The notes under the pieces were generated by a model. It saw only the letters and a program-made list of their open reading frames with translations, made no database searches and was not told where the DNA came from. Positions 4,102 through 28,263 of a stretch of 64,000 bases of DNA are shown in pieces. The position numbers were made by a program, and so were the translations under genes. Origin of the DNA: an uncultured Alphaproteobacteria bacterium (lineage in GTDB: Bacteria; Pseudomonadota; Alphaproteobacteria; JAJFIK01); NCBI GenBank assembly GCA_964474635.1, contig CAYYTT010000001.1:15930-79929 (forward strand), read 5' to 3'. Each line of letters opens with the position of its first letter. Position 1 is the stretch's first letter.

Positions 4102-4402
4102 TCCACGCTCCAGTGGACCGGTTGAGCCTCCAGGTTGGCCCAGTTCGGTCGAATTAACCACGAGTCGATGTGTCCATCATGCAAGCCCGGGCCGGCAAAG
4201 CCCCCAAAACACCGGGGTTTTGTTGCTTTCACCCCAACATTCACGGACAGTGACCACGTGGCGTAGGTGAACAAAAAATTCAGATAAGGCGTTGGTTTTG
4301 GGGCGTTCCCGAGAGAGTGACACGGCAAACGAGCAGCCGCGTGCAGGTGGTCCGGCCGCTGGGCGGCGCCGACCGCGCCGGGCCCGTTTCCGCACGCCTC
4401 GG

Positions 4403-6160
4403 ATGATCGCCATCCTTCTTCTGGCCCTTACGCCGCTTATCCCTGTGCCTGATCTTGGAGTGCTGACTCTCGGAGCGCCGGCCCTTGCGCAAACCGTGGG
4501 TCCCGGATCTCCAGTGCCGCCGGCCGCGCAGCCCCAAGACCCGCGCGAGCGCCTGCGCGTCCCCAGGCCACCCGATCCCCAGCCCGAGTTGAACATTCCC
4601 GCCTTCCGGGGCCTGATCCCGCCGGGCAGCGAAGTGGTGCAGGTCACCCTGGGCCGAGTCGTCTTCGAAGGCGCCACCGTCTTTGACGACACCGCCCTGG
4701 CGGCGCCGTTTCAGCCCCTTTTCGGCCAGCAGATCGCGCTTGCCCAGGTCTATGCCGCCGCCGCCGAGCTCCAGGCCCGGTATCGGGCAAAGGGGTATGT
4801 CCTGACACGGGTCGTGGTGCCGGCCCAACGCATCGACCGGGGCACCATACGCATCCGCGTGGTCGAAGGCTTCATCGATGAGGTGCTGATCGAGGGGGAA
4901 GTCGGATCGGCCCGCCGGCAGATTGAGCGGACGATGGCGCATCTGACGCGCCTGCGCCCCGTGCGCAACCGGGATCTTGAACGCTACCTCCTGCTCGCCA
5001 ACGACATTCCGGGCATCTCGGCGACGGGGGTGCTGCGGCCGGGCACGGGCGAAGCCGGGGCGACACAGCTTCTGGTCCGTGTACGGCGCAAACGGGCCGA
5101 CGGCTTTGTGACCTTCAACAACCGGGAATCGGAATTGACCGGCCCCCTTGCCGCAGCCGTGGGCGCCGGGGTCAACAGCCTGACCCGCCTCGGCGACCGC
5201 CTGGAGGGCCTTTACTTCGTGACGCTCGACAGCCAGGAGCCGACCCGCTTCACCTCCGGCAATCCCTTCGAGCAGAGTTTCGTCTTCGCGGCCTATGAGG
5301 CCCGCCTGACGGGTGAGGGCACGACCGCGCGCGTGGAGGCAAGCTATGGCGTCAGCCGGCCGGGCGCGCGCCTCGCGCCGCTCGACATTGAAAGCCGGGT
5401 CACTCGCTTCAAGGGCGAAGTCCGACATCCGGTCGTCCGTACCCGCGCAGCCAGCCTGTCGGCGGCCCTGTCGCTCGAATCGATCCTGGAGCGCACGGGC
5501 ATCGCCGGCAGTCTGATTGCCCGCGACCGGCTGACCGTCCTCGGCGTCGATTTGGAGGCGGAGCTTCGCGACACGCTGTTCCGTGTCGCGCGCAACACCT
5601 TCAGCCTGTCCCTGCGCCAGGGGCTGGAGATCCTGGGAGCGTCCTCGCCGGATGAGGGCCTGTCGACGCGGCCCGAGGGATCATCCGTCTACACCACCAT
5701 CGAGGCTTATCTGTCGCGCACCCAGTCCTTGAGCCCGCGCGTGGAACTGTTCGGGGAAGCCATTGGCCACTATGCCTCGCGCACGCTTTTGAGCCAGGCC
5801 GAATTCCGCATAGGCGGGGACCGTTTTGGCCGCGCGTTCGATCCCTCACAGCTTGCCGGGGAGCATGGTTTTGGTGTCGGCGCGGAACTGCGCTTCAACG
5901 GCTCCACGGGCTGGCGTTTCGTGCCCGGCTATCAACTCTACGCCTTTGGGGATGCCGCGCAGGTGCGCAACACCGACCGGGGTTTTGAGCCACGGGCATC
6001 CATCTGGTCGACGGGCGCCGGCATCCGGACCAATCTGCGCCCCTCCTCATGGACCGACATTCTTCTCGATCTGGAATATGCGCACGGGGAGAGCTTCGGC
6101 TCGGGCCCGGATCTCGAAACACAGGATCAGGCCTATGTGCGTGTCACCGCCCAGTTCTGA
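4403..6160 (+). CDS. Two-partner secretion outer-membrane transporter (TpsB; ShlB/FhaC/HecB family)
   Basis: ORF 4292..6160. Signal-like MIAILLLALTPLIPV...APALAQ begins at ATG 4403. ShlB-type POTRA block VTLGRVVFEGATVFDDTALAAPFQPLFGQQIALAQVYAAAAELQARYRAKGYVLTRVVVPAQRIDRGTIRIRVVEGFI. Beta-barrel-like C-terminus ends ...YVRVTAQF. Start 4292 versus 4403 is unresolved. Confidence 0.85.
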   Translation: MIAILLLALTPLIPVPDLGVLTLGAPALAQTVGPGSPVPPAAQPQDPRERLRVPRPPDPQPELNIPAFRGLIPPGSEVVQVTLGRVVFEGATVFDDTALAAPFQPLFGQQIALAQVYAAAAELQARYRAKGYVLTRVVVPAQRIDRGTIRIRVVEGFIDEVLIEGEVGSARRQIERTMAHLTRLRPVRNRDLERYLLLANDIPGISATGVLRPGTGEAGATQLLVRVRRKRADGFVTFNNRESELTGPLAAAVGAGVNSLTRLGDRLEGLYFVTLDSQEPTRFTSGNPFEQSFVFAAYEARLTGEGTTARVEASYGVSRPGARLAPLDIESRVTRFKGEVRHPVVRTRAASLSAALSLESILERTGIAGSLIARDRLTVLGVDLEAELRDTLFRVARNTFSLSLRQGLEILGASSPDEGLSTRPEGSSVYTTIEAYLSRTQSLSPRVELFGEAIGHYASRTLLSQAEFRIGGDRFGRAFDPSQLAGEHGFGVGAELRFNGSTGWRFVPGYQLYAFGDAAQVRNTDRGFEPRASIWSTGAGIRTNLRPSSWTDILLDLEYAHGESFGSGPDLETQDQAYVRVTAQF

Positions 6161-9100
6161 CCGGGCCCCGCCCCAAAGCGCGAAGCGGCTGCGCCTTTTC
6201 ACGGCCAGCGCTCTCGTCGGCGCGCTGGTGTCCCTGTCCGTGCCGGCCGAGGCCGGACCCACCGGCGGAACGGTCGTCGCCGGCGACGCCCTGATTTCAA
6301 CGCCCGGCGTGGGCACGACCTTAATCGAACAATCGAGCGACCGGGTCGTCATCGACTGGGACAGCTTTTCCATCGCCCCCGGAGAAATCACCCAGTTCGT
6401 ACAGGGCAGTCCGGATGCGGTCGCCCTCAATCGGGTGACGGGCGGAGCCTTGAGTGAAATCTTCGGTACCCTGAGCGCCGATGGCACCCTCTTTCTGGTG
6501 AACCCCGCCGGCATCTTGGTTGGCCAAGGCGGCATCGTGGACGTCCATGGGCTCGTCGCCAGCACGAGCGGCATCACGAACGAAAACTTCATGGCCGGAC
6601 GGTTCACCTTCGACCGGCCGTCGCAGGTGCCCGGTGCCAGCGTGATCAACCGCGGCACGATCTCCGTTAAGCAGGCTGGCATGGCCGCCCTGGTTGCCCC
6701 CGGGGTCGAAAATGCCGGCGTCATCGTAGCCGATCTTGGCCGGGCGGTCCTTGCCGGCGCGCAGCGTTTCACGGTCGATTTGTACGGGGACGGGCTCATC
6801 CAATTCGATGCCGGTCCGGCGGACGATGGGGACGGATCCGGCCAAGCCTTCAGCGCCGTGAACAACGGCACGATCCGCGCGGACGGCGGCCGTGTCCTGA
6901 TGACCACCGACGCGGCCGAGGCGCTACTGGGCTCGGTTGTGTCCATGGACGGGGTGATCGAAGCCCGCAGCGTATCAACCGAAAACGGAACCATCATCCT
7001 GGCCGGCGGCGAGAACGGCGCGGTCGAGGTTTCCGGCAGGCTTGACGCGCCCCGGGGCGCCATCTCGATCGCCGGAGATGCGGTGACCCTTGATCCGGAC
7101 GCATCGCTGCGCAGCGCTCCCGGGGGCGCAATCGCCATCGCGGCAGCGCGTCTCGACGTAACAGGCGATGGCGCGCTCGGCACCCTGGCCGCCGCGCCGC
7201 TCCAGGATGCGGTCGCCTCGGGCGGCAAGGTGACCCTCGCCGCGCAATCCGCGCTCACGATTGCCCAAGACGGCCTGCAGGTGAGCGACGACGGCCCCGC
7301 CGGCGCCCTGAGCCTTGAAGGCACGGCAGTCGCCATCGGCGGGCCGGTCGATTTGGCGGCCTCGGATCTCACAATCAGGGCCGACAGCCTTGCTCTTGAT
7401 GCGGACCTGACCGCTGCCACCATCCAGGTCGAGACGATCAGCGCCGGCCGGGATATTCGCCTCGGGTCCGGTGATGGCGCCCCGGCCGCCGGGCCCGCCC
7501 TTGCCTTTGACGATCTGACCCGCTTGATCACGCCGGCGCTGACGCTCAGGGCACCGCGGGGCACGGTACGCCTCGGGTCGCTCGACCTTGCCGGCGCAGG
7601 CTTCGGCGCCCTGACCGTGTCCGGGGGCGCTGTTCGTCTGTCCGGGGACATTGTTACCGGCGGACGCGATTTCACGGTGGATGGACCGGCTGTTCTCGTT
7701 GGCGATACCCGCCTCGTCACCGATGGCGGCGCGGCCCGGTTCGCCGGCTCCCTGGACAGCGCGGCGCAGATCACCAGCGCGGATCTGCCGTGGGCCTTGT
7801 CGGTGGAGGCGGGCCCCGGCGCGGCGGCCTTTGAGGACACCATCGGCGGCGAAGGTCCCCTTGCCGCCTTGAGCGTGCGGGCGGGCGACCTTGCCGCAGG
7901 CCCGGTTACAACGCTCGGCGCGATTGATCTGACCGGGATGGCGGGCACGCTCCTTGCCGGCGCGATCACAAGCCAGGAGGGTCCGGTCACGGTCGCGGGT
8001 CCCATCCGTCTGGCTGCGGATACATCCGTGAGCAGCGCCGCTGCGGTCCGTCTCGATCCGGTCATGGGTGGCGGGTTCGATCTCACCCTGGCGGCCTCGC
8101 CGAATGGTCCGATCACTCTGGCCGGCGGCTCAGGCCTTGGTGTTTTGAGTGTTGTGCAAGGGCAGACCTTTACTGCCGAGAGCGCGCTTACCGCGTCAGA
8201 GCTCTCCGTGAGCGGACTGACAGGTGCCGCATTGTTTTTTGGGTCCATCGCGGTGGACGGTGCCGGCCGGATCGAGGGGCCCGGCGGCGCGGTGTTCGAT
8301 GGGGGCCCGGACGGTACATTTCGCTTTGCCGGCGGGCTGACGGCCCTCGACGGACCGGTCAGCGCGCGCGGAACCCTCCTGGCCGGCGGCGGCGGTCTCA
8401 CACTGGCCGATTTCACGCCCGTCGGTGCCGCTCGGCTGGAAGGCTTGGGCGGTGCGGCCATCGACCTTGGGACGGTGTCCGCCGCGCCGAACGCCGCCCT
8501 GACCATCGACGCGGCCGTGCTGAGCGTGGAGGGCCCCGTCACCCTGCCCGATGGGACACTGACGGTGCTGCGAGCCCTGGAGGCACGTGTCACCGGCCCT
8601 GTCACGGCCGAGACCGTCCGCATCGCATCGAACGGCGGTACGGTTGTCCTTCTCGGTGCGCTTGAGACCGTTTCGGCCGACCTCGGCGGCGCCGCGCAAC
8701 TGCGCCTTGAAGCCCCCATTCGGGCGGACGCCCTGCGCCTGGCCGATCTCGGGTCCCTCGTCAGTACCGATCCCATCGCTGCGGGCACCCTCTCGCTTGA
8801 GACCATCGAGATGGCCATGCTCGGCGGGCCTTTGACCGCGGACAGCATGAGTGTGGACGCGCCGGGGGGCACCATTACCGTTCTTGAGACGCTCGATGCG
8901 GGACGACTCTCGGTCCTGGAGGCGGGCTCGGCACGGTTCGCGGGCCCTGTCATGGCGGGCGAAGTGGACCTTACGCCGTCGGCCGGGTCGGTGGTCTTCG
9001 ATGGCCCCCTCGCGGCGGACACGCTGACGACCGGGCCGGGGCCGTTTTCCCTGGACCTGATCGGCGGCGTGCGGATCACCGAGCCGGTTACCATCGCGAA

Positions 9101-11405
9101 CACGGGCCTGCTGACCCTCGGGAAGGATGCGGGGGCGATCTCACGCTTTGACGGCGGGCTAACGGCCACGGAGGGCCCGGCCGCCCTGTCCGGATCCATC
9201 GAGGCGCCGGGGGTCAGTCTCACCCTCGCCGCCGCGACACTGACGGGCGATACCGTCCTCGATGTGGCGGGGGGCGCAGCCTCCGGCGGCGGCCCCTCCA
9301 TTGCGCTGTCCACCCTTAACGGCGCCGGCTTTGACCTTGCTGTGCGCGGTGGACCGGACACCGATGTAACCTTGGGCGGGGCCTCGGCGCTCGGCGATCT
9401 TTCGGTTTCCCGGGCGCGCAGCCTCAGCCTGACCGGGCCCACGCAAGCCGCATCGCTTACCACCCAAGATGTGACGACGCGCATTGAGGCCATCGCCCCG
9501 CTGATGCTCGCCAGCCTGACCATCGGACCGGGCCCCGCCTCGGTCGGCCTGACCGGCGGAAGCGTCTCCGTGACCGGCCCCGCGCGGATCGAGGCATCCG
9601 GCGGCACCGCGATCGGACGCGATCCTCAGAGCACGGCCACATTCTCCGAAGGCCTGAGGGCGCAGGCCGCCCCGGTGACGGTGCACGGGCGCATGAGTGC
9701 CGGTGGCAGCGGCCTTGCGCTTTCCACCGTGCGCATTGCCGGCGACACTGTCCTTGAGGGCACTAACGGCGCCGCGATCTCCCTGGGCGACGTGGCGGCG
9801 GCCGATCGCGCGGCCGCCCCGGATGTGCGCCTGTCCGCGGACCGGATCACCGCCGGCGCCCTCACGCTCGGCGAAGCCAGCGCCGCCGTTGCGGTGATCG
9901 CGGGATCCCAAGCGTCGTTCGCAGGTGCTGTTTCGGCCGACAGCCTGGCCCTTGAGGCCGCCGATGGTGGGCGCATCGATTTCGCCGGCCCCATGACCGT
10001 CCGTACCATAACCATTTCAGAAGGGGCCTATGCCCTTAATCTGACGGGCGGCGCGTCCATCGAGGCGGCCGCGGTCTTTGCCAATAGCGGCGGCGTCACC
10101 CTTGGCGATAAAGGCGTCTCGCAGGAGGGGCCCGGTGACCGCTTTGTCTTCGCCGGCGGTCTCACCTCGACGGCGTCCACAACGACGGTGGCGGGCACCG
10201 TTGAAACCCGCGACGCGCCCCTGGCACTGGCGGCCGTGCGCCTTGCCGGCGACAGCACCCTGACAAGTGCCACCAACAGTGGCGGCGGCGCGGATATCTC
10301 CGTCAGCGGACCAGTGGACAGCGCCGACAGGCCGGCAGCCTTGACCGTCACCGCCGGAATGGAAGGCCATGTGGTCCTTGATGGCCCCGTTGGCCAGACC
10401 GCTCCCTTGCACACCCTTGAGGTCTCGGCCGGACGCATTGCCGCGCGAGCCTCACGCGCCGCCGGTGACATCACCTTGAGGGCACGGGACCAAGCCGGCC
10501 AACCGGGCACCGTCGTCCTGGCCCAAAATCTGGAGACCGCCGGCGGCGATATCCTCATCGACGGTGCCGTGACCATCTCGGGTCAGACAGTCCGGATCGA
10601 CACGACCGGAGACGGATCCCCGGGCGGCGCGGTGACGCTTGGCGCGCAGGACACGGACATCGTCTTTACAGATCCGGACGCAATTTTGACCGTCACAGCC
10701 GGCGACGACGTCACCCTGGCGCGACTTGGTACCACCGAAACAGGTCCTTCCCAGGTCGACGTCGTGGCCGCCGGTTCCCTTCGATCGGCGGGCGGCACTG
10801 TCGCCGCGGCGCTCAGTTTTGCCGCCGGTGCATTCGATGAAGACCCGGCCTTCCGTCCGGACCAGGACATCCGGCTCGACGGCGATCTGACCGTCGCCGG
10901 GCCTGTCCGCCTGGCGGCAACCGGCGATCTTGTGCTTGAGGACACCTTGAACGCAGGCACCTTGAGAATTCTCATCGACGGTATTGCCCGCACCGGGCCC
11001 GATGCCCGCGTCAATGTGGACGATCTGCTGTTCATCGGCTCCTTAAACGACGGGTCTGGCTCCTCCGAACTCATCGGCTCCATACGCGGCATCGATACCG
11101 GAGACGCGGCGGGGCTTGCCTTCCAGACCGCCCTCCCGCTCAACCCGGACTTCCTATTCAACGGATGCGTCGTCGGCGTGCGCTGCGGCCAGGACGACCG
11201 GGTGATCCGCGGCATCAATGTTTTTGCACTGACAGTCCAGCCGGTTACCCAGGACCCCGAGCCCGACGGCCAGCGGTTTTCCGATCTCGGCAATTTCGAA
11301 CTGTACCGCAGTCTGGGTCTGACCCGCTCCTGGAGCGGGGATGACAAGGAGGATGGGGACGAGGAGAACGGGGACGGGGAAGGGGCCGGAAATGGCGATG
11401 AGTGA
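6135..11405 (+). CDS. Two-partner secretion exoprotein (TpsA; filamentous haemagglutinin-like, N-terminal TPS domain)
   Basis: ORF 5826..11405; the likely start is ATG 6135 (MCVSPP...LVSLSVPAEA signal peptide). TPS-domain motifs: VVIDWDSFSIAPGEITQFVQ, ALNRVTGG and FLVNPAGILVG (NPNGI-like). The rest is ~1600 aa of Ala/Gly/Thr/Leu/Val/Asp-rich beta-helix-type sequence. It overlaps the tpsB stop by 26 nt. Confidence 0.9.
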   Translation: MCVSPPSSDRAPPQSAKRLRLFTASALVGALVSLSVPAEAGPTGGTVVAGDALISTPGVGTTLIEQSSDRVVIDWDSFSIAPGEITQFVQGSPDAVALNRVTGGALSEIFGTLSADGTLFLVNPAGILVGQGGIVDVHGLVASTSGITNENFMAGRFTFDRPSQVPGASVINRGTISVKQAGMAALVAPGVENAGVIVADLGRAVLAGAQRFTVDLYGDGLIQFDAGPADDGDGSGQAFSAVNNGTIRADGGRVLMTTDAAEALLGSVVSMDGVIEARSVSTENGTIILAGGENGAVEVSGRLDAPRGAISIAGDAVTLDPDASLRSAPGGAIAIAAARLDVTGDGALGTLAAAPLQDAVASGGKVTLAAQSALTIAQDGLQVSDDGPAGALSLEGTAVAIGGPVDLAASDLTIRADSLALDADLTAATIQVETISAGRDIRLGSGDGAPAAGPALAFDDLTRLITPALTLRAPRGTVRLGSLDLAGAGFGALTVSGGAVRLSGDIVTGGRDFTVDGPAVLVGDTRLVTDGGAARFAGSLDSAAQITSADLPWALSVEAGPGAAAFEDTIGGEGPLAALSVRAGDLAAGPVTTLGAIDLTGMAGTLLAGAITSQEGPVTVAGPIRLAADTSVSSAAAVRLDPVMGGGFDLTLAASPNGPITLAGGSGLGVLSVVQGQTFTAESALTASELSVSGLTGAALFFGSIAVDGAGRIEGPGGAVFDGGPDGTFRFAGGLTALDGPVSARGTLLAGGGGLTLADFTPVGAARLEGLGGAAIDLGTVSAAPNAALTIDAAVLSVEGPVTLPDGTLTVLRALEARVTGPVTAETVRIASNGGTVVLLGALETVSADLGGAAQLRLEAPIRADALRLADLGSLVSTDPIAAGTLSLETIEMAMLGGPLTADSMSVDAPGGTITVLETLDAGRLSVLEAGSARFAGPVMAGEVDLTPSAGSVVFDGPLAADTLTTGPGPFSLDLIGGVRITEPVTIANTGLLTLGKDAGAISRFDGGLTATEGPAALSGSIEAPGVSLTLAAATLTGDTVLDVAGGAASGGGPSIALSTLNGAGFDLAVRGGPDTDVTLGGASALGDLSVSRARSLSLTGPTQAASLTTQDVTTRIEAIAPLMLASLTIGPGPASVGLTGGSVSVTGPARIEASGGTAIGRDPQSTATFSEGLRAQAAPVTVHGRMSAGGSGLALSTVRIAGDTVLEGTNGAAISLGDVAAADRAAAPDVRLSADRITAGALTLGEASAAVAVIAGSQASFAGAVSADSLALEAADGGRIDFAGPMTVRTITISEGAYALNLTGGASIEAAAVFANSGGVTLGDKGVSQEGPGDRFVFAGGLTSTASTTTVAGTVETRDAPLALAAVRLAGDSTLTSATNSGGGADISVSGPVDSADRPAALTVTAGMEGHVVLDGPVGQTAPLHTLEVSAGRIAARASRAAGDITLRARDQAGQPGTVVLAQNLETAGGDILIDGAVTISGQTVRIDTTGDGSPGGAVTLGAQDTDIVFTDPDAILTVTAGDDVTLARLGTTETGPSQVDVVAAGSLRSAGGTVAAALSFAAGAFDEDPAFRPDQDIRLDGDLTVAGPVRLAATGDLVLEDTLNAGTLRILIDGIARTGPDARVNVDDLLFIGSLNDGSGSSELIGSIRGIDTGDAAGLAFQTALPLNPDFLFNGCVVGVRCGQDDRVIRGINVFALTVQPVTQDPEPDGQRFSDLGNFELYRSLGLTRSWSGDDKEDGDEENGDGEGAGNGDE

Positions 11406-14397
11406 TCTGCGCATTATGGGCCTTGCTTTCGCCGGCCTTGCGATCAGCGTGCTGACGGGCTGCTCGGGTGCACTCTCACCGGCGGATGGATCGCGCACGG
11501 CGGACAGCGACATCGTCGATCTTGGCGCCAATGCCCTGGGTGAGCGCTGCCGTCTGCGTGAAGACAAACACGTGGCCCGCGCCGCAGGGGAACGCCATTA
11601 TACGATCCAGTGCGGGGACTGGAGCACACCGAGTGCCCGCCTCGTCCAGGTTGCCGAGGACGCGGAAACGGGCCCGGGCTCAAGCCTGTGGCAGCGGGAG
11701 GTTACGAGCCGCCTTTTGTGCGGCGCCGAGGAAGACGCCCTGGTGCTGGGCGACCGCCCTGCCCGGCTGCATCGGTGCCGTCTGCGCCGGGGCGGCTGGC
11801 CCATGCTGGCCCTGATCGTTGGACTGCCCGACCAGGCCCTCCTGATGCAGACGATCCCCTCGGGCCTCGGGGTTGCCGAAGCCGCCCTCGCCCATATCGC
11901 CGGTCTGGAGGCCGGCGCCGTGGGCGACGCCGGGCCGCGGGGCACCCGGTCCCGTTCCATCGAGCTTCTCGAGCTGGCCCTGCGCGACCAGTTGTTTTCG
12001 GCCGGCGACATTCGGGCCTATGAAGAGCTACTCGACGTGGCCCAGTACTACAACAGCGTGGGCAATTTCATCGCGTCGGAACGCTTTTACCGGGATGCCT
12101 TAAGCATCCTGCGCAAAGTGGTGCCGCCGGACGATCCGGTCCTTGCCGACCCGTTGACCCGCCTCGCCCTCGCCTTGAGCAATCAGGGCAAGGTTACCGA
12201 AGCCGAAGCCCTGTTCAAAACCCTGGATGGCTTGAGCGCCGGCGCGCTTGACCCGCTCACGGTCCCGCGCCTGCGCATCGCCCGCGCCTCCCACGAGGTC
12301 AACCGCAATCGCTGCCGCGCCGCGTTGCGCGAGCTTCAGGCCGGCCAGGCCCGTCTTATCGAAATCGCCAACAGTGCCAGCGGGTCCGAAGTGCAGATCC
12401 TGGCCGGTGGCGCCGACGCGGCGGCGGTGGAACTGGCCCTTAGCGGCGCGCTCGAAAGCGCGATCATGCTGTGCCTCAACGATCTCGATGCGGCCGATAA
12501 GGCCGCCGACCGGGCCATCGCGATCCTGACGGACACGCCCCAGGCACCGCGCGACTGGCGGCCGGTGTTCCTGTCGCTGCGCGCGGAAATCCTGCGCCGG
12601 CGGCGCAGTCTGGACAGCGGCGAGGACGACCTGGAGCGGGCCTTGAGGGATCGCCGGGTGCTCTACGACCGCTCGCGCCTGGAGGGGCTCGACTATCTTT
12701 ATCTGGGCGGGCTCAACCGTGAGGCGGGCCGCCGGGACGACGCGCTGGAGAATTTTCGCCGGGGTGTCTCGGTGCTGCGCGAGACGAATGAGGGGGTCAC
12801 GCTCGACCAGGTCTTGCCCTTCCTGCGCCTCCTGAACGAGGAGGCAGGCCGGGACCCGGCCCGGGCACAGACGCTTCATGCGGAGATGTTCGCGGCTGGA
12901 CAAATCGTGCGTAACTCCCTCACGGCACGGACCATCGCGGCGACCTCCGCGCGTCTTGCCGCCGGCGATCAGGCTGTCTCCACCGTGATCCGCGATCTCC
13001 AGGAAGCGCGCCGGCGGATTGGCGATCTTAACCGGGCCATTGATGCGGCCCAGGCCCGCACAGACGCGGGCGGACGGGTCATTGAAATTGCGGCCATGAT
13101 CGAAGACCGGGACGCGGCGCGCCAGGAGGCAAGCGCCCTTGAAGAGGAGGTGCAGGCCGCGGCGCCGGCCTATAACCAACTCGTCAGCAGACCCCAGGAT
13201 CTGGTGAGCGCCCAGGCGGCCCTGGCCGCCGATGAGGCCATTCTCCAGGTTCTGATCGGCGAGACCTCCAGCCTTGCGTTTTTCGTCACCCGTGACACGG
13301 TCGAGCCCCATTTCATCGGCTTTGGTTCGGGCGAAGCCGCCTTCGCCGTAGCGAAATTGCGGGCAGGCCTGACCATCGGCACCGGCCAGCGCCTGGGCGC
13401 CTTTGATTTGAAACTTGCCCATGGCCTGTACCGCGCCATCCTCGGCCCCTTCGAGCAACGCCTTGCCACGGTTCGGCATTTGATCACTGTGCCAACGGGC
13501 CCACTCGCGAGCCTGCCCTTTGCCATTCTTGTAACGCAACGCCCGCAAGGGCGCGGCGTGCGCGCGGACACCTATCGCAAGACCGCCTGGCTCGGCACCG
13601 CCCATGCCATCTCCGTGGCCCCGTCAGTACGTTCTTTAGTCGATCTGCGCACCCTGCCCCAGGCTCCGAAACGCAGCCGTACACTGATCGGTTTTGGCGA
13701 TTTTCAGGGACCGCAAAATGCCCCAGCCGTCCCGATTACGCCGCTGTGCGAGTCCCGGGTCCAGTGGATGGCCCGCAATGCGCCGCCCCTGCCGGAAACA
13801 CGGGCCGAGCTTGAGGCCATCGCGAGGGGATTGCCGGACGGACAGACGGACCTGCGCCTTGGCGAGGCCTTCACGGAGGCGGCCGTCCAAGGGGCCGCCC
13901 TTGAAGACTACCGGATCGTTTATTTTGCGACCCATGGCCTGATGCCCGCCGATGTGGGCTGCCGGACCGAACCCGCCCTTGTCACATCGGGTTTTCGCCA
14001 GGATACGCCGGACCGGGACGGTCTTCTCACCTCAAGCGACGTGCTGGGCCTGCGGATGAATGCGGATCTGGTTGTCTTGTCGGCCTGTAACACCGGCGGC
14101 GGGGACGGCTCCGGCGGTGAGGGGCTGAGCGGTCTGGCTCGCAGCTTTTTTTATGCCGGTGCGCGCGGCATGCTGGTCAGCCACTGGTATGTGGAGAGCG
14201 CGGCGACCCAGCGGCTGATGACGGATGTCTTCGCACGCCTTGCCGACAATCCCGCCCTGGGCAGCGCCGAAGCGCTGCGCCAGGCCCAGGACGCTTTGTT
14301 TTTGCAAGAGCGCGGGTCTGCGATTGAAGCCCATCCAGCCTTCTGGGCGGCCTTCACGGTCGTGGGCGATGGGGCCCGGCCGGTGCGGGTGCGCTGA
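11392..14397 (+). CDS. TPR-repeat CHAT-domain (caspase-fold) protein, predicted lipoprotein
   Basis: ORF 11341..14397; likely start MAMSDLRIMGLAFAGLAISVLTGC, with lipobox L-T-G-C. Central TPR-like repeats (YYNSVGNFIASERFYRDALSILRK...). C-terminal CHAT hallmarks: IVYFATHGL (His) and DLVVLSACNTGGGDG (Cys), then LARSFFYAGARGMLVSHW and HPAFWAAFTVVGDG. The start lies 14 nt before the tpsA stop. Confidence 0.9.
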   Translation: MAMSDLRIMGLAFAGLAISVLTGCSGALSPADGSRTADSDIVDLGANALGERCRLREDKHVARAAGERHYTIQCGDWSTPSARLVQVAEDAETGPGSSLWQREVTSRLLCGAEEDALVLGDRPARLHRCRLRRGGWPMLALIVGLPDQALLMQTIPSGLGVAEAALAHIAGLEAGAVGDAGPRGTRSRSIELLELALRDQLFSAGDIRAYEELLDVAQYYNSVGNFIASERFYRDALSILRKVVPPDDPVLADPLTRLALALSNQGKVTEAEALFKTLDGLSAGALDPLTVPRLRIARASHEVNRNRCRAALRELQAGQARLIEIANSASGSEVQILAGGADAAAVELALSGALESAIMLCLNDLDAADKAADRAIAILTDTPQAPRDWRPVFLSLRAEILRRRRSLDSGEDDLERALRDRRVLYDRSRLEGLDYLYLGGLNREAGRRDDALENFRRGVSVLRETNEGVTLDQVLPFLRLLNEEAGRDPARAQTLHAEMFAAGQIVRNSLTARTIAATSARLAAGDQAVSTVIRDLQEARRRIGDLNRAIDAAQARTDAGGRVIEIAAMIEDRDAARQEASALEEEVQAAAPAYNQLVSRPQDLVSAQAALAADEAILQVLIGETSSLAFFVTRDTVEPHFIGFGSGEAAFAVAKLRAGLTIGTGQRLGAFDLKLAHGLYRAILGPFEQRLATVRHLITVPTGPLASLPFAILVTQRPQGRGVRADTYRKTAWLGTAHAISVAPSVRSLVDLRTLPQAPKRSRTLIGFGDFQGPQNAPAVPITPLCESRVQWMARNAPPLPETRAELEAIARGLPDGQTDLRLGEAFTEAAVQGAALEDYRIVYFATHGLMPADVGCRTEPALVTSGFRQDTPDRDGLLTSSDVLGLRMNADLVVLSACNTGGGDGSGGEGLSGLARSFFYAGARGMLVSHWYVESAATQRLMTDVFARLADNPALGSAEALRQAQDALFLQERGSAIEAHPAFWAAFTVVGDGARPVRVR

Positions 14398-14425
14398 CGA
14401 TCAAGCCTTTCGCGGTGCGAGATCG

Positions 14426-16516
14426 TTACTTGCTGGTCATGATGATGAAGGCTCCGGTTTCCCCGCCGCGCAGGCGCTCCAGATGGCCGGCAACGAGCCG
14501 GTCATCCGGACGCTGACGGGCAAGGTCCTCAAACGCCATGAGAGCCGCCGGACTTTCCCGGTCCAGCGCCTGGAAGGCCTCCCGGTAGGCCGCCTGATAG
14601 GGGCTGGCGGCATCGAGCGCATCGATGGGCTCATAGGTAATGAGGGCATCCTGCTTACCGTGGAGCACCAGGGTGCCCGCCGGGCGCACGGGCCGATCCG
14701 GGGCCGCGTCCACCGTGGCCTTTGAGAGCAGGGCCCGTGTGCCAAGCGCCTTGTTGGCCGCCTCCAGACGCGCGGCCGTGTTCACGACATTGCCGATGGC
14801 GGTGTAGTCGAAACGATCGCGGCCGCCAAAATTGCCGACGAATGCAGGCCCTGTATCAAGGCCCACCCGCGTGCGCCCGAACCGATAGCCCTGGCTCATC
14901 CAACGCGCACGGAAGGCCTCCCCGAACTCAACGAGCGCCGCCGCGCAGGCCACGGCGCGGCCGGCGTCGTCCTCGGAGGCTTCCGGCGCGCCGAAAAAGC
15001 ACATGGACCCATCGCCCAGAAATTTGTCGATCGTCCCGCCATGGGCAAGGATAATGCCGCCAAGCCCATCGAAGTAGTCATTGATGATCGTCCCGATAAG
15101 GTCCGGAGGCAGATACTCCGAGCTTGACGTGAATTGCTCGATATCGGTGAACATGACCGTGATCGTGCGCCGCTCACCGCCAAGCTTCAACCGGCTCGGA
15201 TCCCGGTCGAGGCGCGAGACGACCCCCGGCGGCACGTAGCGGGCAAAGGCCCGTCGGATCTGATTGCGCAAAAGGCGCTCCCGCCGGCCCACGAACGCGC
15301 TCGCGCCCGCCGCCGCAATCATGAAGGCCAGGACCGGCGTGACCAGCGGCACCATGACCTCCGCGCGGGCAAAGAGCGCGAAACACAGAACGCCAAACGC
15401 GCTCAGCACCAGCATCGACAAGAGGATCTTGAGCCACAGGGACAGCCGCGACATGGACAGCAGCATGCCCACCAGCGCCAGCGCGAGACCGATGGCCGCC
15501 TCCCCAGCCAGTCCGGGCTCCAGAATGCGCCGCCCGTCCAGGATCTGGGACAGGATATGGGCGTGGATTTCCACGCCGGGCATTTCCTCAACGCCGGGGA
15601 TGGCGGTCAGGGCAGTCCGGTGCCGGTCGATATCGACGAGCACGGGACCGATCAGGGCGATTTTGTCCTTGAAGAAAACGGGCGGCAGGATCGGCACTAC
15701 CTGGGCGTCGACTACCAGGAACGGTTTTTCGTCCGGACGCTGCGAATTAAAGCCACGCCACGCGATGCGGTAGCGCCGCTCCTTGGGCAGATCGACGCCC
15801 AGGCGATGGGCCACCGCCGCGCCCAGTTGAAATTGCGCTTTCTCGCCCTCGTCCCAACGGGGATAGGCATAACGCACCGTACCGTCCTGCCGGTCGCGCA
15901 GCAGCATGGCGTAACCGGGCGTCAGATCCCCGACAAACCAGGAGAGGACATCGGCCCGCTTGCCCGTCGTCCCAACATCGGCCCCGGCCCATCCGGGAAT
16001 GACGGGCGTCTTGACGGTGCGCATGACCTCGCGAAGCAATTCGTCCTTGCGCGGATCCGTTTCATTGTCGAGGACGAAATCGATGCCGATGGCCCGCGCC
16101 CCGGCCTCGTCAAGGCGTGTGATAATCTGTGCCAGGAGTTCTCGGTCGAATGGCAAACGGCAGGACAGGGCATCGAGAGTGTCGTCGGTCACGCCGATGA
16201 TGACGATGTTCTCGTCCTGGCGCGCGTCGGGCGCCGCGAGGAAACGAATGTCGCGGGTCCACTCGTCAACCCCCTTCAACACTTCGGCGATGTGCGTGAG
16301 TGCAAAGGGAACGCAGACGGCGGCAAGCAGGATCAGGCCGACCCATGCACCGACCGCGAGGCGCAGCGTGCGGCGCGGTTCCCGGTCAACGGGCGAGCTG
16401 CCCGCCCCGCCCTCGCCCCTTGCGTCCCCGCCCGGTTCTTGCTCGTCGGCCCCGACCATCTCCGCCCGCCTCCCCGCGTCTCGGCTCCAAGGACCGCCAG
16501 TATAGTGATCGGGCAA
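14426..16516 (-). CDS. CHASE2 sensor domain-containing class III adenylate/guanylate cyclase
   Basis: 696-aa ORF with an N-terminal TM. CHASE2-like IVIIGVTDDTLDALSCRLPFDRELLAQIITRLDEAGARAIGIDFVLD, followed by three TM helices. Cyclase core: ITVMFTDIEQFT, GTIDKFLGDGSMCFFGAP, RVGLDTGPAFVGNFG, FDYTAIGNVVNTAARLE. Start M1 (16516) versus M20 (16459) is unresolved. Confidence 0.9.
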   Translation of the reverse strand: MPDHYTGGPWSRDAGRRAEMVGADEQEPGGDARGEGGAGSSPVDREPRRTLRLAVGAWVGLILLAAVCVPFALTHIAEVLKGVDEWTRDIRFLAAPDARQDENIVIIGVTDDTLDALSCRLPFDRELLAQIITRLDEAGARAIGIDFVLDNETDPRKDELLREVMRTVKTPVIPGWAGADVGTTGKRADVLSWFVGDLTPGYAMLLRDRQDGTVRYAYPRWDEGEKAQFQLGAAVAHRLGVDLPKERRYRIAWRGFNSQRPDEKPFLVVDAQVVPILPPVFFKDKIALIGPVLVDIDRHRTALTAIPGVEEMPGVEIHAHILSQILDGRRILEPGLAGEAAIGLALALVGMLLSMSRLSLWLKILLSMLVLSAFGVLCFALFARAEVMVPLVTPVLAFMIAAAGASAFVGRRERLLRNQIRRAFARYVPPGVVSRLDRDPSRLKLGGERRTITVMFTDIEQFTSSSEYLPPDLIGTIINDYFDGLGGIILAHGGTIDKFLGDGSMCFFGAPEASEDDAGRAVACAAALVEFGEAFRARWMSQGYRFGRTRVGLDTGPAFVGNFGGRDRFDYTAIGNVVNTAARLEAANKALGTRALLSKATVDAAPDRPVRPAGTLVLHGKQDALITYEPIDALDAASPYQAAYREAFQALDRESPAALMAFEDLARQRPDDRLVAGHLERLRGGETGAFIIMTSK

Positions 16517-16603
16517 AGACTTTCGGAAATGCCCATTCTATGCTCGCGCGGAAGATGCAAAACGCGGCGCCGCGAACACCCCGTTGACCCATGGGAGGGA
16601 ACG

Positions 16604-17506
16604 ATGGCCGAAACGGTTTCACAGCCTTTGGCGGGCACACTCCGCGCGCTGCTCATGGCCGGCGGCCCTTCGATGGCCTTGGCGATGGCGATGGCCATGG
16701 CACCGGCACAAAGCGCTCTTGCCCTGCAGGACAGCCCGGCATCTGCCGCCGGGGCCGCCGACGAAGAGGCCCAAAGCCTTGTCGTGGTGCGCAGTTCGGC
16801 GCAGGCGCTCGGCGTTGGCGATGTCCTGCAAAGTGGACAGATCGTGCGCTTGGCGGAAAACGAGGAAATCGAAATCCTGTCCCAGCGCGGTGTGAGCGTC
16901 GTTTATCGCGGCCCCTTTGAAGGGCCGGTGAGCGGGCGCGGCGACGCGGTTGGACGGTCGCGCCTGAAGTTGCTGCGCGATGCGATTTTCGGTCTTGATG
17001 AGGGCACCCGCGTCATGGGCGGCACCCGCCAGCTGGAGCGCCCACCCCTGACGGACGCCGATAACGGGACGGACGACGCACCAGGCGATCCGGGTGAAGA
17101 AGACCCCGCGCCCCTGGGCCCGGCGGGAGAAGCAATCCTGATCGACCTGGCCCAAGGGGGAACCTGGTGCGCCGTCGATGGCGTCGATCTGTGGTTGATG
17201 CGTGCCGAATACGGCCGTGCCCGTGCACAGCTGAGCGATGGGACCGCGCGCGCGCCCTTGACCTGGAGCTATTTCGCGGAGGCCCTGCCCTGGCCAGACG
17301 CGGTGCCGCGCACGGACGGTGCCCGCTACTCGGTGACATTCGACAATGGGCCAACCTTGAGGTTCGACCTGCGTGTGGTCGCGCCCGCAGCCGATCCGGC
17401 GGGCACACTCATTGTACTGGCGCGCAGCGGCTGCCGGTCCCAAGTCGCCCGCGCCGCCGCCGCTCTTGAAGGCACGCCCGATAACGGCGACGGGCCAACC
17501 CGCTGA
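16604..17506 (+). CDS. Secreted hypothetical protein (signal peptide; short FecR-like stretch), divergent partner of the CHASE2 cyclase
   Basis: This is the 3' part of track ORF 15134..17506. ATG 16604 is preceded by GGGAGGGA. The N-terminus MAETVSQPLAGTLRALLMAGGPSMALAMAMAMAPAQSALA looks like a signal peptide. SLVVVRSSAQALGVGDVLQSGQIVRLAENEEIEILS resembles a FecR-type beta segment. The C-terminal half has two Cys. No family could be assigned by eye. Confidence 0.65.
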   Translation: MAETVSQPLAGTLRALLMAGGPSMALAMAMAMAPAQSALALQDSPASAAGAADEEAQSLVVVRSSAQALGVGDVLQSGQIVRLAENEEIEILSQRGVSVVYRGPFEGPVSGRGDAVGRSRLKLLRDAIFGLDEGTRVMGGTRQLERPPLTDADNGTDDAPGDPGEEDPAPLGPAGEAILIDLAQGGTWCAVDGVDLWLMRAEYGRARAQLSDGTARAPLTWSYFAEALPWPDAVPRTDGARYSVTFDNGPTLRFDLRVVAPAADPAGTLIVLARSGCRSQVARAAAALEGTPDNGDGPTR

Positions 17507-17592
17507 CTCTGACTTTGGCGCTGCCTCTGGCGCTGAGAGAGCACAGGCTCGCCTTTCTGCGAACTCGGGCCTTTGACCCGGCATAGAAGAGT

Positions 17593-18225
17593 TTACAGCT
17601 CGATGTCCCGTGACCCCGGCGGGGTGGTGTCGTCCGTGGCCGGCTTTGCCGTGCGCACGGCGACCAGATAGCGCGCCTGGTCCTCACTCGCGACCCGCTC
17701 GATGGTGCGCACCAGACAGCGGAAGCGCCGGACGATGATGCGCTCGCCCGCACCGCCGCACAGAAACCCGGTCCGCGAGGCCGTCAGAATGCGGAGCGCA
17801 AAGCGCAGCTCCGGGCAGACCCCGGCAAAGGTGACCAGATAGGGCCGGCGCACCGACGCGATGAAAATCGCGTGGCGCCGGTCGATCACCTGGAAATTCC
17901 GCAGCAAACGCAGATTGATGCAGTCCCGGCGCGGCTCCGGCCAGGTCGGATCGGCCTTTAAGGGACGCGGCGGATCGCCAGCATCCTGCCCCACCGTTTG
18001 CCGGGGCACGGGCGTGTAGGACATGGCCGGGAGCGGTGTGCGGGTCTCCAGTTCGCCCTGCCTCAGATGATCGCCCACGGCATCGGCCAACAGACCATGC
18101 ATCCTGGACCCGTCGGCAAGGCCCGGAAAGGGTCCGAATGCTATCAGCACACCAACGAAGAGGCCGACCATCGTGTCGAGACCGAAACGGCGCTCACGTC
18201 TTGGTTCCATGACATCGGCTCCCAT
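17593..18225 (-). CDS. Hypothetical membrane-anchored/secreted protein
   Basis: ORF 17593..18360 trimmed to the internal Met (MGADVMEPRRERRFGLDTMVGLFVGVLIAFG, an N-terminal hydrophobic helix), because the longer form overlaps the ilvA start region. The C-terminal part has four Cys (CINLR...GVCPELRF...GFLCGG...RCLV). Family not recognised with confidence. Confidence 0.5.
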   Translation of the reverse strand: MGADVMEPRRERRFGLDTMVGLFVGVLIAFGPFPGLADGSRMHGLLADAVGDHLRQGELETRTPLPAMSYTPVPRQTVGQDAGDPPRPLKADPTWPEPRRDCINLRLLRNFQVIDRRHAIFIASVRRPYLVTFAGVCPELRFALRILTASRTGFLCGGAGERIIVRRFRCLVRTIERVASEDQARYLVAVRTAKPATDDTTPPGSRDIEL

Positions 18226-18387
18226 GACATTTTCAAACCGAACGCCTGTCTGGTGGACGGCGCGGTGACATCGCTGCTGCCCGCTTCGCCGAACCGTATC
18301 CTCAGGCGGGCATGGCGCCCTGTCGAGCCCCAACCAAATGCGTGCCCGGCACGCGCCCACGTTCCTTTTGCGAGTCGGGAGGGCCCC

Positions 18388-25830: not shown

Positions 25831-25902
25831 ATCGCGGCGCGGGCGGCACATCGCGGCGCGGGCGGCACATCGCGGCGCGGGCGGCACATCGCGGCGCGGG
25901 CG
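25828..25902. repeat. Tandem direct repeat, 19-bp unit ca(y)atcgcggcgcgggcgg, about 4 copies
   Basis: Copies at 25828-25846, 25847-25865, 25866-25884 and 25885-25902 (the last is truncated or degenerate). The copies are contiguous with no spacers. The repeat sits at or just upstream of the kinase start codon. Confidence 0.95.
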
Positions 25903-28151: not shown

Positions 28152-28263
28152 GAACCCCACAACTCCTGTCTTGACGGTGTTTTCCTGGCTATAGATCCTG
28201 AATCACTTTTGTGACATTACGATTGGAAAAATCTGACAGCAGGCTGACAAATGCCTCAAACCC

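Follow-up and report, generated by a model that had tools for sequence, protein, structure and literature searches.

The locus lies within a stretch of DNA of 64,000 nucleotides (hereafter, the window). It comprises the genes of a two-partner secretion (TPS) system, an exported caspase-fold protease, a CHASE2 cyclase and a secreted protein of 300 aa, here called FAM together with its family. The genes and features are as follows.

4292..6160, plus strand: TpsB-type outer-membrane transporter (Pfam POTRA_2 1.1e-19, ShlB 1.8e-16; start codon uncertain)
6147..11405, plus strand: TpsA-type exoprotein with an N-terminal TPS domain (Pfam TPS 8.5e-32)
11341..14397, plus strand: exported TPR-CHAT caspase-fold protease (Pfam CHAT, PF12770, 1.1e-58; TPR_12 2.4e-10)
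14426..16459, minus strand: CHASE2 cyclase, probably a class IIIb adenylate cyclase (Pfam CHASE2, PF05226, 3.9e-30; Guanylate_cyc, PF00211, 3e-14)
16460..16603, no strand: divergent intergenic region between the cyclase and FAM genes (144 bp)
16604..17506, plus strand: FAM, a 300-aa secreted protein of a two-domain family without annotation
16604..16723, plus strand: FAM signal peptide, residues 1-40 (Sec-like; cleavage predicted between SALA and LQ by the -3/-1 Ala rule, read from the sequence)
16775..16987, plus strand: FAM N-terminal small beta domain plus helix, residues 58-128 (predicted; AF2 pLDDT above 90)
17012..17035, plus strand: FAM linker motif V-M-G-G-T-R-Q-L (family consensus [LVI]-G-[AVG]-x-R-[GAS])
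17132..17473, plus strand: FAM C-terminal domain, residues 177-290 (predicted Ig-like beta sandwich followed by two helices; AF2 pLDDT above 90)

The TPS assignment was based on a TPS-domain TpsA adjoining a TpsB with POTRA domains and a ShlB barrel. TpsA is approximately 1750-1860 aa in size, and its reading frame is open upstream as far as 5826 in the ORF list. The start of the TPR-CHAT gene overlaps the end of tpsA. Its product is probably a lipoprotein, as suggested by the lipobox VLTGC in the N-terminal sequence. The translation also contains YFATHG and LSACNTG, which we take to be the sites of the catalytic His/Cys dyad and which would fit such a dyad.

The preliminary description had paired a CHASE2 cyclase divergently with a secreted 300-aa protein, and the open reading frames (class III cyclase on the minus strand, secreted protein on the plus strand), Pfam matches and signal peptide all agreed with this arrangement. 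The maximal open reading frame of the cyclase spans 14426-16516 (minus strand), and its likely start is the ATG at 16459, which has GGAGG ahead of it. The ribosome-binding site of FAM, GGGAGGGA, is located in the intergenic region, 3 nt ahead of the ATG. Within these 144 bp there was no match to the sigma-70 consensus, and no CRP-like site was seen by eye.

Architecture of the cyclase and of FAM

The CHASE2 profile (PF05226) matched the cyclase with a score of 105.7 bits (curated cut-off, 26.3). As read from the translation, the layout of the protein is a first transmembrane helix, a periplasmic CHASE2 domain of ~280 aa, three transmembrane helices and the catalytic domain; the hydrophobic LAVGAWVGLILLAAVCVPFAL precedes the CHASE2 domain and three hydrophobic segments follow it.

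Catalytic residues were called by residue-level alignment to 2w01, 6fht, 3r5g and 1wc0. The Asp residues of MFTDIEQF and FLGDGSM, which had been proposed to bind metal, aligned with the metal Asp of 2w01, 3r5g and 1wc0. As to the pair of residues proposed to specify ATP, the Lys of IDKFLGDG was upheld but the Asp of RFDYTAIG was not, the true partner being the Thr two residues downstream. This Thr (FDYTAIG) aligned with those of Pseudomonas aeruginosa CyaB (3r5g, mDYTiiG) and Spirulina CyaC (1wc0, sDFTaiG). At the two specificity positions, the guanylate cyclase Cya2 (2w01) possesses Glu for Lys and Gly for Thr. The transition-state Asn and Arg are present in VVNTAARLE, which aligned with VNlAsRLE of CyaB. 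We take Lys/Thr at the specificity positions to be the mark of subclass IIIb, and the adenylate cyclase call therefore stands despite the wrong Asp. Thus, judging from its residues, the window cyclase is probably an active, ATP-specific enzyme. Further, the set of Asp, Lys, Thr or Ser, Asn and Arg was retained in 17 of 18 FAM-linked cyclases; in the exception, at locus L070 (L numbers denote related loci), Arg replaces Lys. The catalytic domain aligned with that of CyaB at E 2e-30 and with that of CyaC at E 1e-22, and both share its metal Asp pair, Lys/Thr, Asn and Arg. The sensor modules differ, being MASE2 in CyaB, other N-terminal domains in CyaC and CHASE2 in the window cyclase.

The FAM family comprises 705 representatives at 50% clustering and has no Pfam or NCBIfam model; the window FAM itself had no match in these collections at E<=1, and cluster look-ups of members returned no names. 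The family was uncovered by exhaustive profile search only, with the window FAM as a seed sequence of profile A1, whereas a word-index homologue search returned 2 relatives from the single protein and 5 from the 134-sequence profile. Every nearly invariant position of the 134-sequence alignment is present in the window FAM. Members begin with a signal peptide, followed by a small beta domain of SH3-like type, an LGxxR linker and a domain of Ig-like type with a conserved pair of Cys; 13 of 16 longer members add a DUF4384-like domain at the C-terminus. DUF4384 accompanies orthocaspases as an accessory domain (PMC7475262). At locus L033, another secreted 300-aa protein adjoins a different CHASE2 cyclase; its layout is similar, and its match to the FAM profile was not significant.

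The signal peptide given in the preliminary description, ending in SALA before LQ, reads as Sec-like, and the aligned homologues similarly begin with a hydrophobic N-terminus followed by Ala-x-Ala-like sites. When the N-terminal domain was searched with Foldseek, the top match was 5ix9 (TM 0.61, E 0.18), followed by SH3 domains, and weak matches to SH3-C_UBE2O were detected in 5 of the 134 members. The fold of the modelled domain is SH3-like, not FecR. In the linker (LGxxR), Arg142 is kept in 131 of 134 members; the segment has low pLDDT and, according to the model, is probably disordered. Foldseek with the whole model yielded weak Ig, cupredoxin and PAD-like matches and nothing stronger, and the FAM profile gave faint Ig-domain matches and nothing else among PDB sequences. 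The two-Cys C-terminal domain noted earlier proved to hold the most conserved positions of the family: C189 does not vary among the 134 sequences, and conservation of C277 is 90% or higher. These two residues probably form a disulfide.

Linkage of FAM, the cyclase and the protease across loci

The preliminary description had suggested a partnership of the secreted protein with CHASE2 in the periplasm, and this proposal passed a test of gene linkage. FAM sequences formed 42 groups at 80% identity; the metagenomic loci among these represent a single sub-branch of the family, alignment A4 of that sub-branch having supplied the search pattern. A CHASE2 cyclase directly adjoins FAM in 31 of these and is missing from 4; the other 7 are on contigs too short, so that 31 of 35 informative groups have the pair. 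All 10 neighbouring cyclases that were checked possess both CHASE2 and Guanylate_cyc in Pfam. The pair occurs in three gene orders: divergent (window, L001, L005, L007, L073 and L074), cyclase then FAM (for example L010, L035, L056 and L075, with frequent stop/start overlap), and FAM then cyclase (L069 and L070). Persistence of the linkage through three orders argues for function rather than inherited synteny. When 72,556 plasmids were searched with tblastn, a FAM member and the window CHASE2 domain each matched the identical 14 records, in which the two matches were 0.1-2.3 kb apart.

Distances among FAM sequences correlated with those among CHASE2 regions (r = 0.86; partial r = 0.63 controlling for the catalytic domain; permutation p = 5e-4), although shared ancestry and unequal rates of change inflate mirror-tree correlations of this kind. 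Further, the products share one compartment: the CHASE2 domain lies in the periplasm, FAM is made with a signal peptide, and signal peptides or lipoboxes are present on the proteases. Cyclases were not found near FAM in four groups. In L024/26, FAM lies between a caspase (Peptidase_C14) and a Sel1-repeat protein; in L050, it adjoins a Crp-like regulator; in L036/45/46, its neighbours are unrelated; and in L023, there was no cyclase within the 1.4 kb of sequence upstream of FAM. Comparison of loci thus indicates a strong linkage of FAM to one subtype of CHASE2 adenylate cyclase. Because FAM is almost always beside this subtype, it is a strong candidate partner for that sensor domain.

The suggested link of the pair to the TPS and CHAT genes held in part: the block was found in four other loci but was lacking in L001 and L005, the nearest relatives by synteny. 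TpsA, TPR-CHAT, cyclase and FAM recur as a block in L007 and L073. The same parts are reordered in L071 (CHAT, cyclase, FAM, TpsB and a large protein), and the order in L069 is a large MBG-repeat protein, CHAT, FAM and cyclase. In other branches, a Peptidase_C14 caspase occupies CHAT's place. CHAT is adjacent to the pair in the window, L007, L015, L025, L052, L069, L071 and L073, and Peptidase_C14 is adjacent in L010, L013, L024/26, L070 and L075 and 6 kb off in L033. No protease was detected within 8-10 kb of many cyclase-FAM pairs (L001, L005, L035, L056 and L074). Downstream genes encoding DUF6491, PALP, DAO and Na_Ca_ex are common to the window, L001 and L005, and conservation among these loci is therefore partly plain synteny. 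The DUF6491 gene was considered as a module component and rejected, since it is retained in the syntenic relatives L001 and L005 only.

Candidate roles of FAM

Most likely, FAM is exported and serves a single subfamily of CHASE2 class IIIb adenylate cyclases as a dedicated accessory subunit, acting on the periplasmic CHASE2 domain. We give slightly better than an even chance to this reading jointly with that of the locus as a five-gene envelope module of TpsB, TpsA, exported TPR-CHAT protease, cyclase and FAM. FAM would act on CHASE2 as a co-sensor, tethered ligand or inhibitor and would thereby set cAMP output. The idea that FAM may be a co-sensor is well supported by comparative genomics. 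It must be set against S. meliloti CyaD1/D2/K, the only CHASE2 cyclase system studied genetically, in which the neighbours SMc02177 (FecR domain) and SMc02178 are dispensable for signal perception (PMC5498481); the dispensability of these exported proteins counts against a co-sensor.

Alternatively, FAM might be co-expressed as part of the envelope, or might lie on the output side of the pathway, serving, for instance, the caspase-fold protease or the TPS exoprotein as a substrate, inhibitor or adaptor; the cyclase would then merely regulate or accompany this machinery. Such a role is suggested by FAM of L024/26, which is beside a Peptidase_C14 gene without a cyclase, by the fusion of many members to the caspase-associated DUF4384, and by the exported proteins beside cyaD1 of S. 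meliloti, which are cAMP/Clr targets not needed for perception (PMC5498481). However, pairing with the cyclase (31 groups) is far commoner than that with any protease, and many cyclase-FAM pairs are without a nearby protease. Further, stop/start overlap of the FAM and cyclase genes is common, and FAM distances correspond better to those of the CHASE2 region than to those of the catalytic domain. We consequently regard an output role as unlikely, although it is the most serious competitor of an accessory subunit.

The preliminary description had also recognized a FecR-like stretch in the 300-aa protein. FAM could accordingly be a divergent FecR-type periplasmic relay domain, homologous to the FecR proteins beside CHASE2 sensors. 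By eye, the G..L..G..V.L..G pattern of the N-terminal domain is reminiscent of FecR. FecR-domain genes do adjoin CHASE2 genes in S. meliloti (smc02177; PMC5498481), in the Burkholderia LysM-FecR/CHASE2 kinase operon (PMC5192318) and in Campylobacterota clusters (PMC9239204), and a FecR-Hint protein adjoins FAM in the related locus L058. In L058, however, FecR and FAM are separate, coexisting genes, and Pfam, NCBIfam, hhalign and Foldseek gave the FecR assignment no support. FecR (PF04773) was absent from the Pfam matches of the 134 members even at E<=10, and hhalign of the FAM profile against a single FecR sequence, that of E. coli, gave a probability of 0.2%. Neither FecR nor PupR structures were among the 50 Foldseek PDB matches listed for the whole model or the N-terminal domain; the matches listed for these confident models were SH3-like and Ig-like folds. 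The genetic context also differs from that of classical FecR: FAM has a cleavable signal peptide and lacks an N-terminal anti-sigma region or membrane anchor, and there is no adjacent ECF sigma gene. The neighbours of the window FAM are the cyclase and the DUF6491 protein, and the nearest TonB-dependent receptor begins at 26076, ~8.6 kb downstream. We therefore rejected homology to FecR, which is very improbable.

It is equally improbable that the pairing is functionless inherited synteny, as the downstream genes shared with L001 and L005 might suggest, or an anti-phage module with a Pycsar-like cyclase and a caspase-like effector, as PADLOC matches of the catalytic domain to PycC models might suggest: the pair persists in unrelated flanks and three gene orders, all partners are exported, the specificity pair is of the adenine type (Lys/Thr), and the PADLOC matches, on which we rejected a defence system, were limited to the shared cyclase fold, with none for FAM, CHAT, TpsB or the DUF6491 protein.

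For FAM as an accessory subunit of the cyclase, we favour gating by proteolysis as the mechanism. The exported protease of the caspase fold (CHAT here and Peptidase_C14 at other loci) would cut FAM at the Arg of LGxxR and part the SH3-like N-terminal domain from the disulfide-bonded Ig-like C-terminal domain, altering the input of CHASE2. Orthocaspases cleave after basic residues (PMC6426788). However, the linker Arg is conserved equally in FAM from pairs without a nearby protease, and LGxxR may therefore mark a site of binding instead of cleavage. Linkage of the genes, export signals, retention of the catalytic residues and conservation of the linker motif were observed; we infer the binding of FAM to CHASE2, the cleavage at Arg and the direction of the cAMP effect. 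The full proposal, in which processed FAM is a direct CHASE2 ligand or a released inhibitor, is speculative and, in our estimate, quite improbable.

Bacterial caspase homologues are usually discussed in the context of cell death. An exported caspase-fold protease as a recurring third partner hints that such homologues may have a role in envelope signalling. If gating is true, protease, FAM and CHASE2 would form a periplasmic proteolytic switch that couples the TPS exoprotein or envelope state to cAMP, and processed FAM would be the first ligand of a CHASE2 domain to be defined. CHASE2 has been a defined domain since 2003. No ligand of it is given in PMC5192318, and a dedicated exported partner of one CHASE2 subtype would provide a concrete, testable pair for the signal question. 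Further, FAM merits definition as a family, since neither Pfam nor NCBIfam has a model for its ~700 representatives (50% clustering).

Comparison with known systems

The S. meliloti CyaD1/CyaD2/CyaK system (with Clr, SMc02177, SMc02178, SMb20495 and NsrA) resembles the window locus in that alphaproteobacterial CHASE2 class III adenylate cyclases are found beside exported proteins, and it likewise has a TPR protein as well as a beta-barrel protein of the outer membrane; its signal has the nature of a peptide or protein (PMC5498481, PMC7529298). In contrast to FAM, the neighbour SMc02177 has a Pfam FecR domain (SMc02178 was compared by description only). A Crp/Clr gene is part of the S. meliloti system but is not adjacent in the window, and the S. 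meliloti genes are scattered over several replicon sites, whereas those of the window form one block.

Two further systems are the LysM-FecR/CHASE2 histidine kinase operon (Burkholderia BiofilmReg, P. aeruginosa PA4035-36) and the Campylobacterota cluster of CHASE2 cyclase, FecR outer-membrane protein and TPR protein. In both, the gene for a small exported protein similarly adjoins that of a CHASE2 sensor, and joint action has been proposed (PMC5192318, PMC9239204). The accessory fold is FecR in both, unlike the SH3-like and Ig-like domains predicted for FAM, and the output in Burkholderia is a histidine kinase rather than a cyclase. Neither a caspase-fold protease nor a TPS system is described for those clusters, whereas both are present in the window.

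The Lap system (LapA retention module, LapG and LapD) is comparable by analogy only, as no sequence homology with FAM was detected. In it, too, a conserved linker site comes after a small beta module at the N-terminus, and it would correspond in combining a periplasmic Cys protease with an inner-membrane nucleotide-signalling protein. The best PDB match of the FAM N-terminal domain, 5ix9, is a retention module, although this match is weak (TM 0.61, E 0.18). LapG differs in not being caspase-fold, and LapD is a c-di-GMP-binding protein that signals outwards from the cell interior. Finally, cyanobacterial metacaspase-CHASE2 fusions tie a caspase-fold protease to a CHASE2 sensor (PMC3501461, PMC8195603). 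These are single fused proteins with a cytoplasmic caspase, whereas in the window protease and sensor are encoded by separate genes, with export of the protease and a cyclase as the output.

Genes of the region and the catalytic domain of the cyclase

Six genes, listed first below, lie across 4292-18360 of the window; the remaining entries are found further along the stretch. No tRNA genes were detected in the 64 kb window.

4292-6160, + strand: TpsB transporter of two-partner secretion (TPS), with POTRA_2 and ShlB domains
about 6147-11405, + strand: TpsA exoprotein, with a TPS domain
11341-14397, + strand: TPR-CHAT protein
14426-16459 (ORF extends to 16516), - strand: CHASE2 and Guanylate_cyc protein (the cyclase), convergent with the TPR-CHAT gene
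16604-17506, + strand: 300-aa member of an unnamed family of exported proteins (FAM), divergent from the cyclase
17593-18360, - strand: DUF6491 gene
23429-25887, - strand: OmpR-type response regulator and HAMP histidine kinase
26076-28160, - strand: TonB-dependent receptor
29299-31638, - strand: type II secretion secretin
53115-55310, - strand: RelA/SpoT homologue

The coordinates and quoted sequences of the preliminary description were accurate when checked. An open frame of 790 codons (15134-17506, + strand) crosses the cyclase gene in antisense, and the FAM gene is confined to its last 300 codons; the true start is the ATG at 16604, 3 bases downstream of GGGAGGGA. The N-terminus of the product is a signal-peptide-like segment ending in SALA|LQ (signal peptides and membrane topology were judged by eye from the sequence). 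Further long antisense ORFs, such as 6047-9607 (- strand) within tpsA, occur in this region of 65-70% GC and can easily mislead naive ORF calling. CHAT and tpsA share 65 nt (11341-11405) if the annotated CHAT start is used; were translation to begin at the internal Met codon 11392 or 11398, CHAT would overlap the tpsA stop codon by a short stretch. With any of these starts, the arrangement suggests that the exoprotein and the protease are translationally coupled.

The catalytic domain of the cyclase aligned to Synechocystis Cya2 (2w01, 6fht), P. aeruginosa CyaB (3r5g) and Spirulina CyaC (1wc0), with E values of 1e-33 to 1e-22. In the alignment to these solved cyclases, the metal-binding positions were two Asp residues, one in MFTDIEQF and one in FLGDGSM, and the transition-state residues were the Asn and Arg of VVNTAARLE. 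The substrate-specifying Lys position was occupied by the Lys of IDKFLGDG (Glu in the guanylate cyclase Cya2) and the second specificity position by the Thr of FDYTAIG (Thr in CyaB and CyaC, Gly in Cya2). The Lys/Thr pair is the arrangement of class IIIb adenylate cyclases. A Lys/Asp pair had been proposed as the ATP-specifying residues; the Lys was correct, the Asp lies two residues upstream of the relevant Thr position, and the ATP-specific call stands on other grounds. Thus, with the Lys/Thr pair and the catalytic residue set aligned, the window cyclase looks active and ATP-specific. The motif set was kept in 17 of 18 cyclases adjoining a FAM homologue, the exception being that of the Azospirillum locus L070, in which Arg replaces Lys (L-numbers denote other loci with FAM homologues).

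The family of the 300-aa protein

A word-index search with FAM found two relatives. When 1.84 billion cluster representatives were searched exhaustively with a profile, 705 matched at E<=1e-3 and 139 of them at E<=1e-10. Judged by these searches, FAM is a large family without annotation. Members are mostly 235-250 aa and consist of a signal peptide, a beta domain of ~50 residues followed by a helix, a linker and a C-domain of ~110 residues; the only peculiarity of the window protein is a 30-residue acidic insertion in the linker. Across 134 aligned sequences (residue numbers of the window protein), C189 was invariant and G72, G96, G103, P104, G107, R142, W221, W230, P231, C277 and Q280 were conserved in at least 90%. 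R142, present in 131 of the 134 within the motif [LVI]-G-[AVG]-x-R-[GAS], falls in a segment of the structural model with pLDDT near 50. A C-terminal DUF4384-like domain was added in 13 of 16 longer family representatives (among P0051-P0136), and three (P0061, P0071 and P0121) were internal duplications of FAM domains.

The preliminary description had noted a FecR-like stretch in the 300-aa protein, for which we obtained no support. The window protein had no match in Pfam or NCBIfam at E<=1, and relaxing the cut-off to E<=10 gave no consistent match of the 134 relatives to any family, FecR included; a faint match to an SH3-type model, in 5 of the 134, was the sole one to recur. In hhalign, the family profile matched E. 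coli FecR with a probability of 0.2%. In the AlphaFold2 model built from the 134 sequences, both domains had pLDDT above 90 (87 for the N-domain modelled alone). The best structural match of the N-domain (16775-16987) was 5ix9, "cell surface anchoring domain" (TM 0.61, E 0.18), followed by SH3 domains, and the C-domain weakly matched Ig, cupredoxin and PAD-type folds. No FecR/PupR entry was among the 50 matches listed in either fold search. Judged by the Pfam profile, one FecR sequence and the fold search, the 300-aa protein lacks FecR likeness. In another locus, one protein (L058:11469-12968, - strand) combines a true FecR domain (PF04773, 5.5e-9) with a Hint domain; its gene is convergent to FAM and adjoins a CHASE2 cyclase, and FecR and FAM are therefore able to coexist in one locus.

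Linkage to CHASE2 cyclases and caspase-fold proteases

The divergent cyclase/FAM pair is repeated in L001/L006 and L005, alphaproteobacterial MAGs that are the two closest relatives. They share the downstream DUF6491, PALP-ACT, DAO and Na_Ca_ex genes with the window and so, alone, show only synteny. The distant members with unrelated flanks settle the question of synteny versus linkage: in L007 and L073 the TPS, TPR-CHAT, cyclase (- strand) and FAM (+ strand) genes are followed by unrelated RND efflux genes, and in L074 the divergent pair lies amid unrelated genes.

A metagenome scan with a sub-branch FAM alignment, which samples that one sub-branch of the family, returned 59 loci, annotated with purpose-built HMMs and spot-checked with Pfam (CHASE2 and Guanylate_cyc in 10 of 10 neighbours). 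With plasmid and look-up loci added, grouping of the FAM proteins at 80% identity gave 42 groups. The proposed pairing with CHASE2 held among these homologues: a CHASE2/cyclase ORF lay within 300 bp of FAM in 31 groups (in 8 of which the contig holds the cyclase domain only), was absent from 4 with usable flanks, and could not be judged in 7 with too short contigs. The order in most of the metagenomic loci is cyclase then FAM on one strand, with the cyclase stop overlapping or abutting the FAM start; FAM precedes the cyclase in L069 and L070. Further, tblastn of 72,556 plasmids with a FAM member and with the window CHASE2 domain hit an identical set of 14 records, from Niveispirillum, Azospirillum and Sphingobium (12 records), the two matches lying 0.1-2.3 kb apart; the Sphingobium replicons are closely related, so that these represent three or four independent lineages. 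FAM and CHASE2-region distances correlated across 18 pairs (r = 0.86; partial r = 0.63 with the catalytic domain controlled, permutation p = 5e-4), which, confounded as it is by shared descent, is supportive of the association.

Two loci deserve separate mention. At L050 (FAM gene 4672-5400, - strand), no cyclase lies within 4-10 kb and a Crp-type cNMP-binding regulator adjoins. L033 also has a second CHASE2 cyclase, and the gene just downstream of it (10727-11626, - strand) encodes another secreted protein of 300 aa without a Pfam match; the layout of this protein resembles that of FAM (signal peptide, beta-rich N-part, DG.Y-type sandwich, C-terminal helices), and its match to the FAM profile was not significant. 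The small exported proteins paired with CHASE2 cyclases may be of several kinds, unrelated or very divergent.

Many loci place an exported caspase-fold protease beside the cyclase-FAM pair. CHAT adjoins it in the window, L007, L073, L015, L025, L052, L069 and L071, and Peptidase_C14 in L010, L013, L070 and L075 (two copies), lying 6 kb off in L033. A signal peptide or lipobox was present in 8 of 9 protease N-termini inspected (the L024 start is ambiguous). The window CHAT protein has a lipobox (VLTGC) and the motifs YFATHG and LSACNTG, which we take to fit the catalytic dyad of a predicted CHAT protease. A large exoprotein accompanied CHAT wherever the sequence sufficed; those of the window, L007 and L073 have a Pfam TPS domain. 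In L071 a 2152-aa protein without a Pfam match comes after a ShlB-type transporter, and L069 has a 1982-aa MBG-repeat protein, incomplete at the start of the sequence stretch. L013 and L015, two contigs of one FAM group, carry Peptidase_C14 upstream of the cyclase and TPR-CHAT downstream of FAM, respectively, and combined seem to form a locus with both kinds of protease. In L070 the order is a FAM-DUF4384-like fusion (8920-10053), the cyclase, and a protein that combines Peptidase_C14, Big_9, SH3 and FGE-sulfatase domains.

The main rival explanation makes FAM a part of the machinery of the protease or the exoprotein, which the cyclase merely accompanies. L024/26 has FAM directly behind a C14 gene and no visible cyclase; no protease lies nearby in about half of the long-flanked pairs (L001, L005, L035, L056, L074). 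The previously suggested link of the pair to the TPS/CHAT genes was borne out by their recurrence in L007 and L073 and failed upstream of L001/L006 and L005, where a PQQ dehydrogenase and a sulfotransferase take their place. We read the cyclase-FAM pair as the core, to which protease and TPS genes are often added.

Proposed role of the exported protein and comparison with known systems

The best-supported reading is that FAM would be a periplasmic accessory of one CHASE2 subtype. Its activity may be gated by proteolysis, an exported protease cutting FAM at the linker Arg. Four features suggest this: the Arg is nearly invariant and lies in a probably disordered linker, exported Cys proteases are encoded alongside, FAM occurs fused to DUF4384-like domains, and orthocaspases favour a basic P1. 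The linker Arg is equally conserved without an adjacent protease and could instead be a binding motif. 5ix9 is the retention module found at the N-terminus of a giant adhesin of LapA type. The Lap protease that cleaves just after the retention module is periplasmic and under the control of a nucleotide-signalling membrane protein. The likeness of the FAM N-domain to this module is suggestive, a weak analogy at its TM and E values. DUF4384 is an accessory domain of orthocaspases (PMC7475262), which favour basic P1 residues (PMC6426788).

The small exported proteins reported so far beside CHASE2 sensors all have a FecR domain (PMC5498481, PMC5192318, PMC9239204). In S. meliloti, smc02177 (FecR) and the periplasmic protein SMc02178 adjoin cyaD1 (PMC5498481); Burkholderia and Pseudomonas have a LysM-FecR/CHASE2 kinase operon (PMC5192318), and Campylobacterota a cluster of a CHASE2 cyclase, a FecR protein of the outer membrane and a TPR protein (PMC9239204). 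The cyaD1-adjacent proteins were not needed for the plant signal to be perceived (PMC5498481), which calls for caution regarding FAM as a co-sensor. Metacaspase-CHASE2 fusions are also known (PMC3501461, PMC8195603). Our literature search found no report joining CHASE2 with CHAT or CHAT with two-partner secretion, and no description of a FAM-like partner of CHASE2; PADLOC recognised only the generic cyclase fold. FAM is likewise co-encoded and exported but, unlike the FecR-type accessories, belongs to a different, unannotated family. A CHASE2 receptor with a co-encoded periplasmic accessory is a known arrangement; what differs here is the unannotated family of the putative accessory and the caspase-fold protease as a frequent third component.
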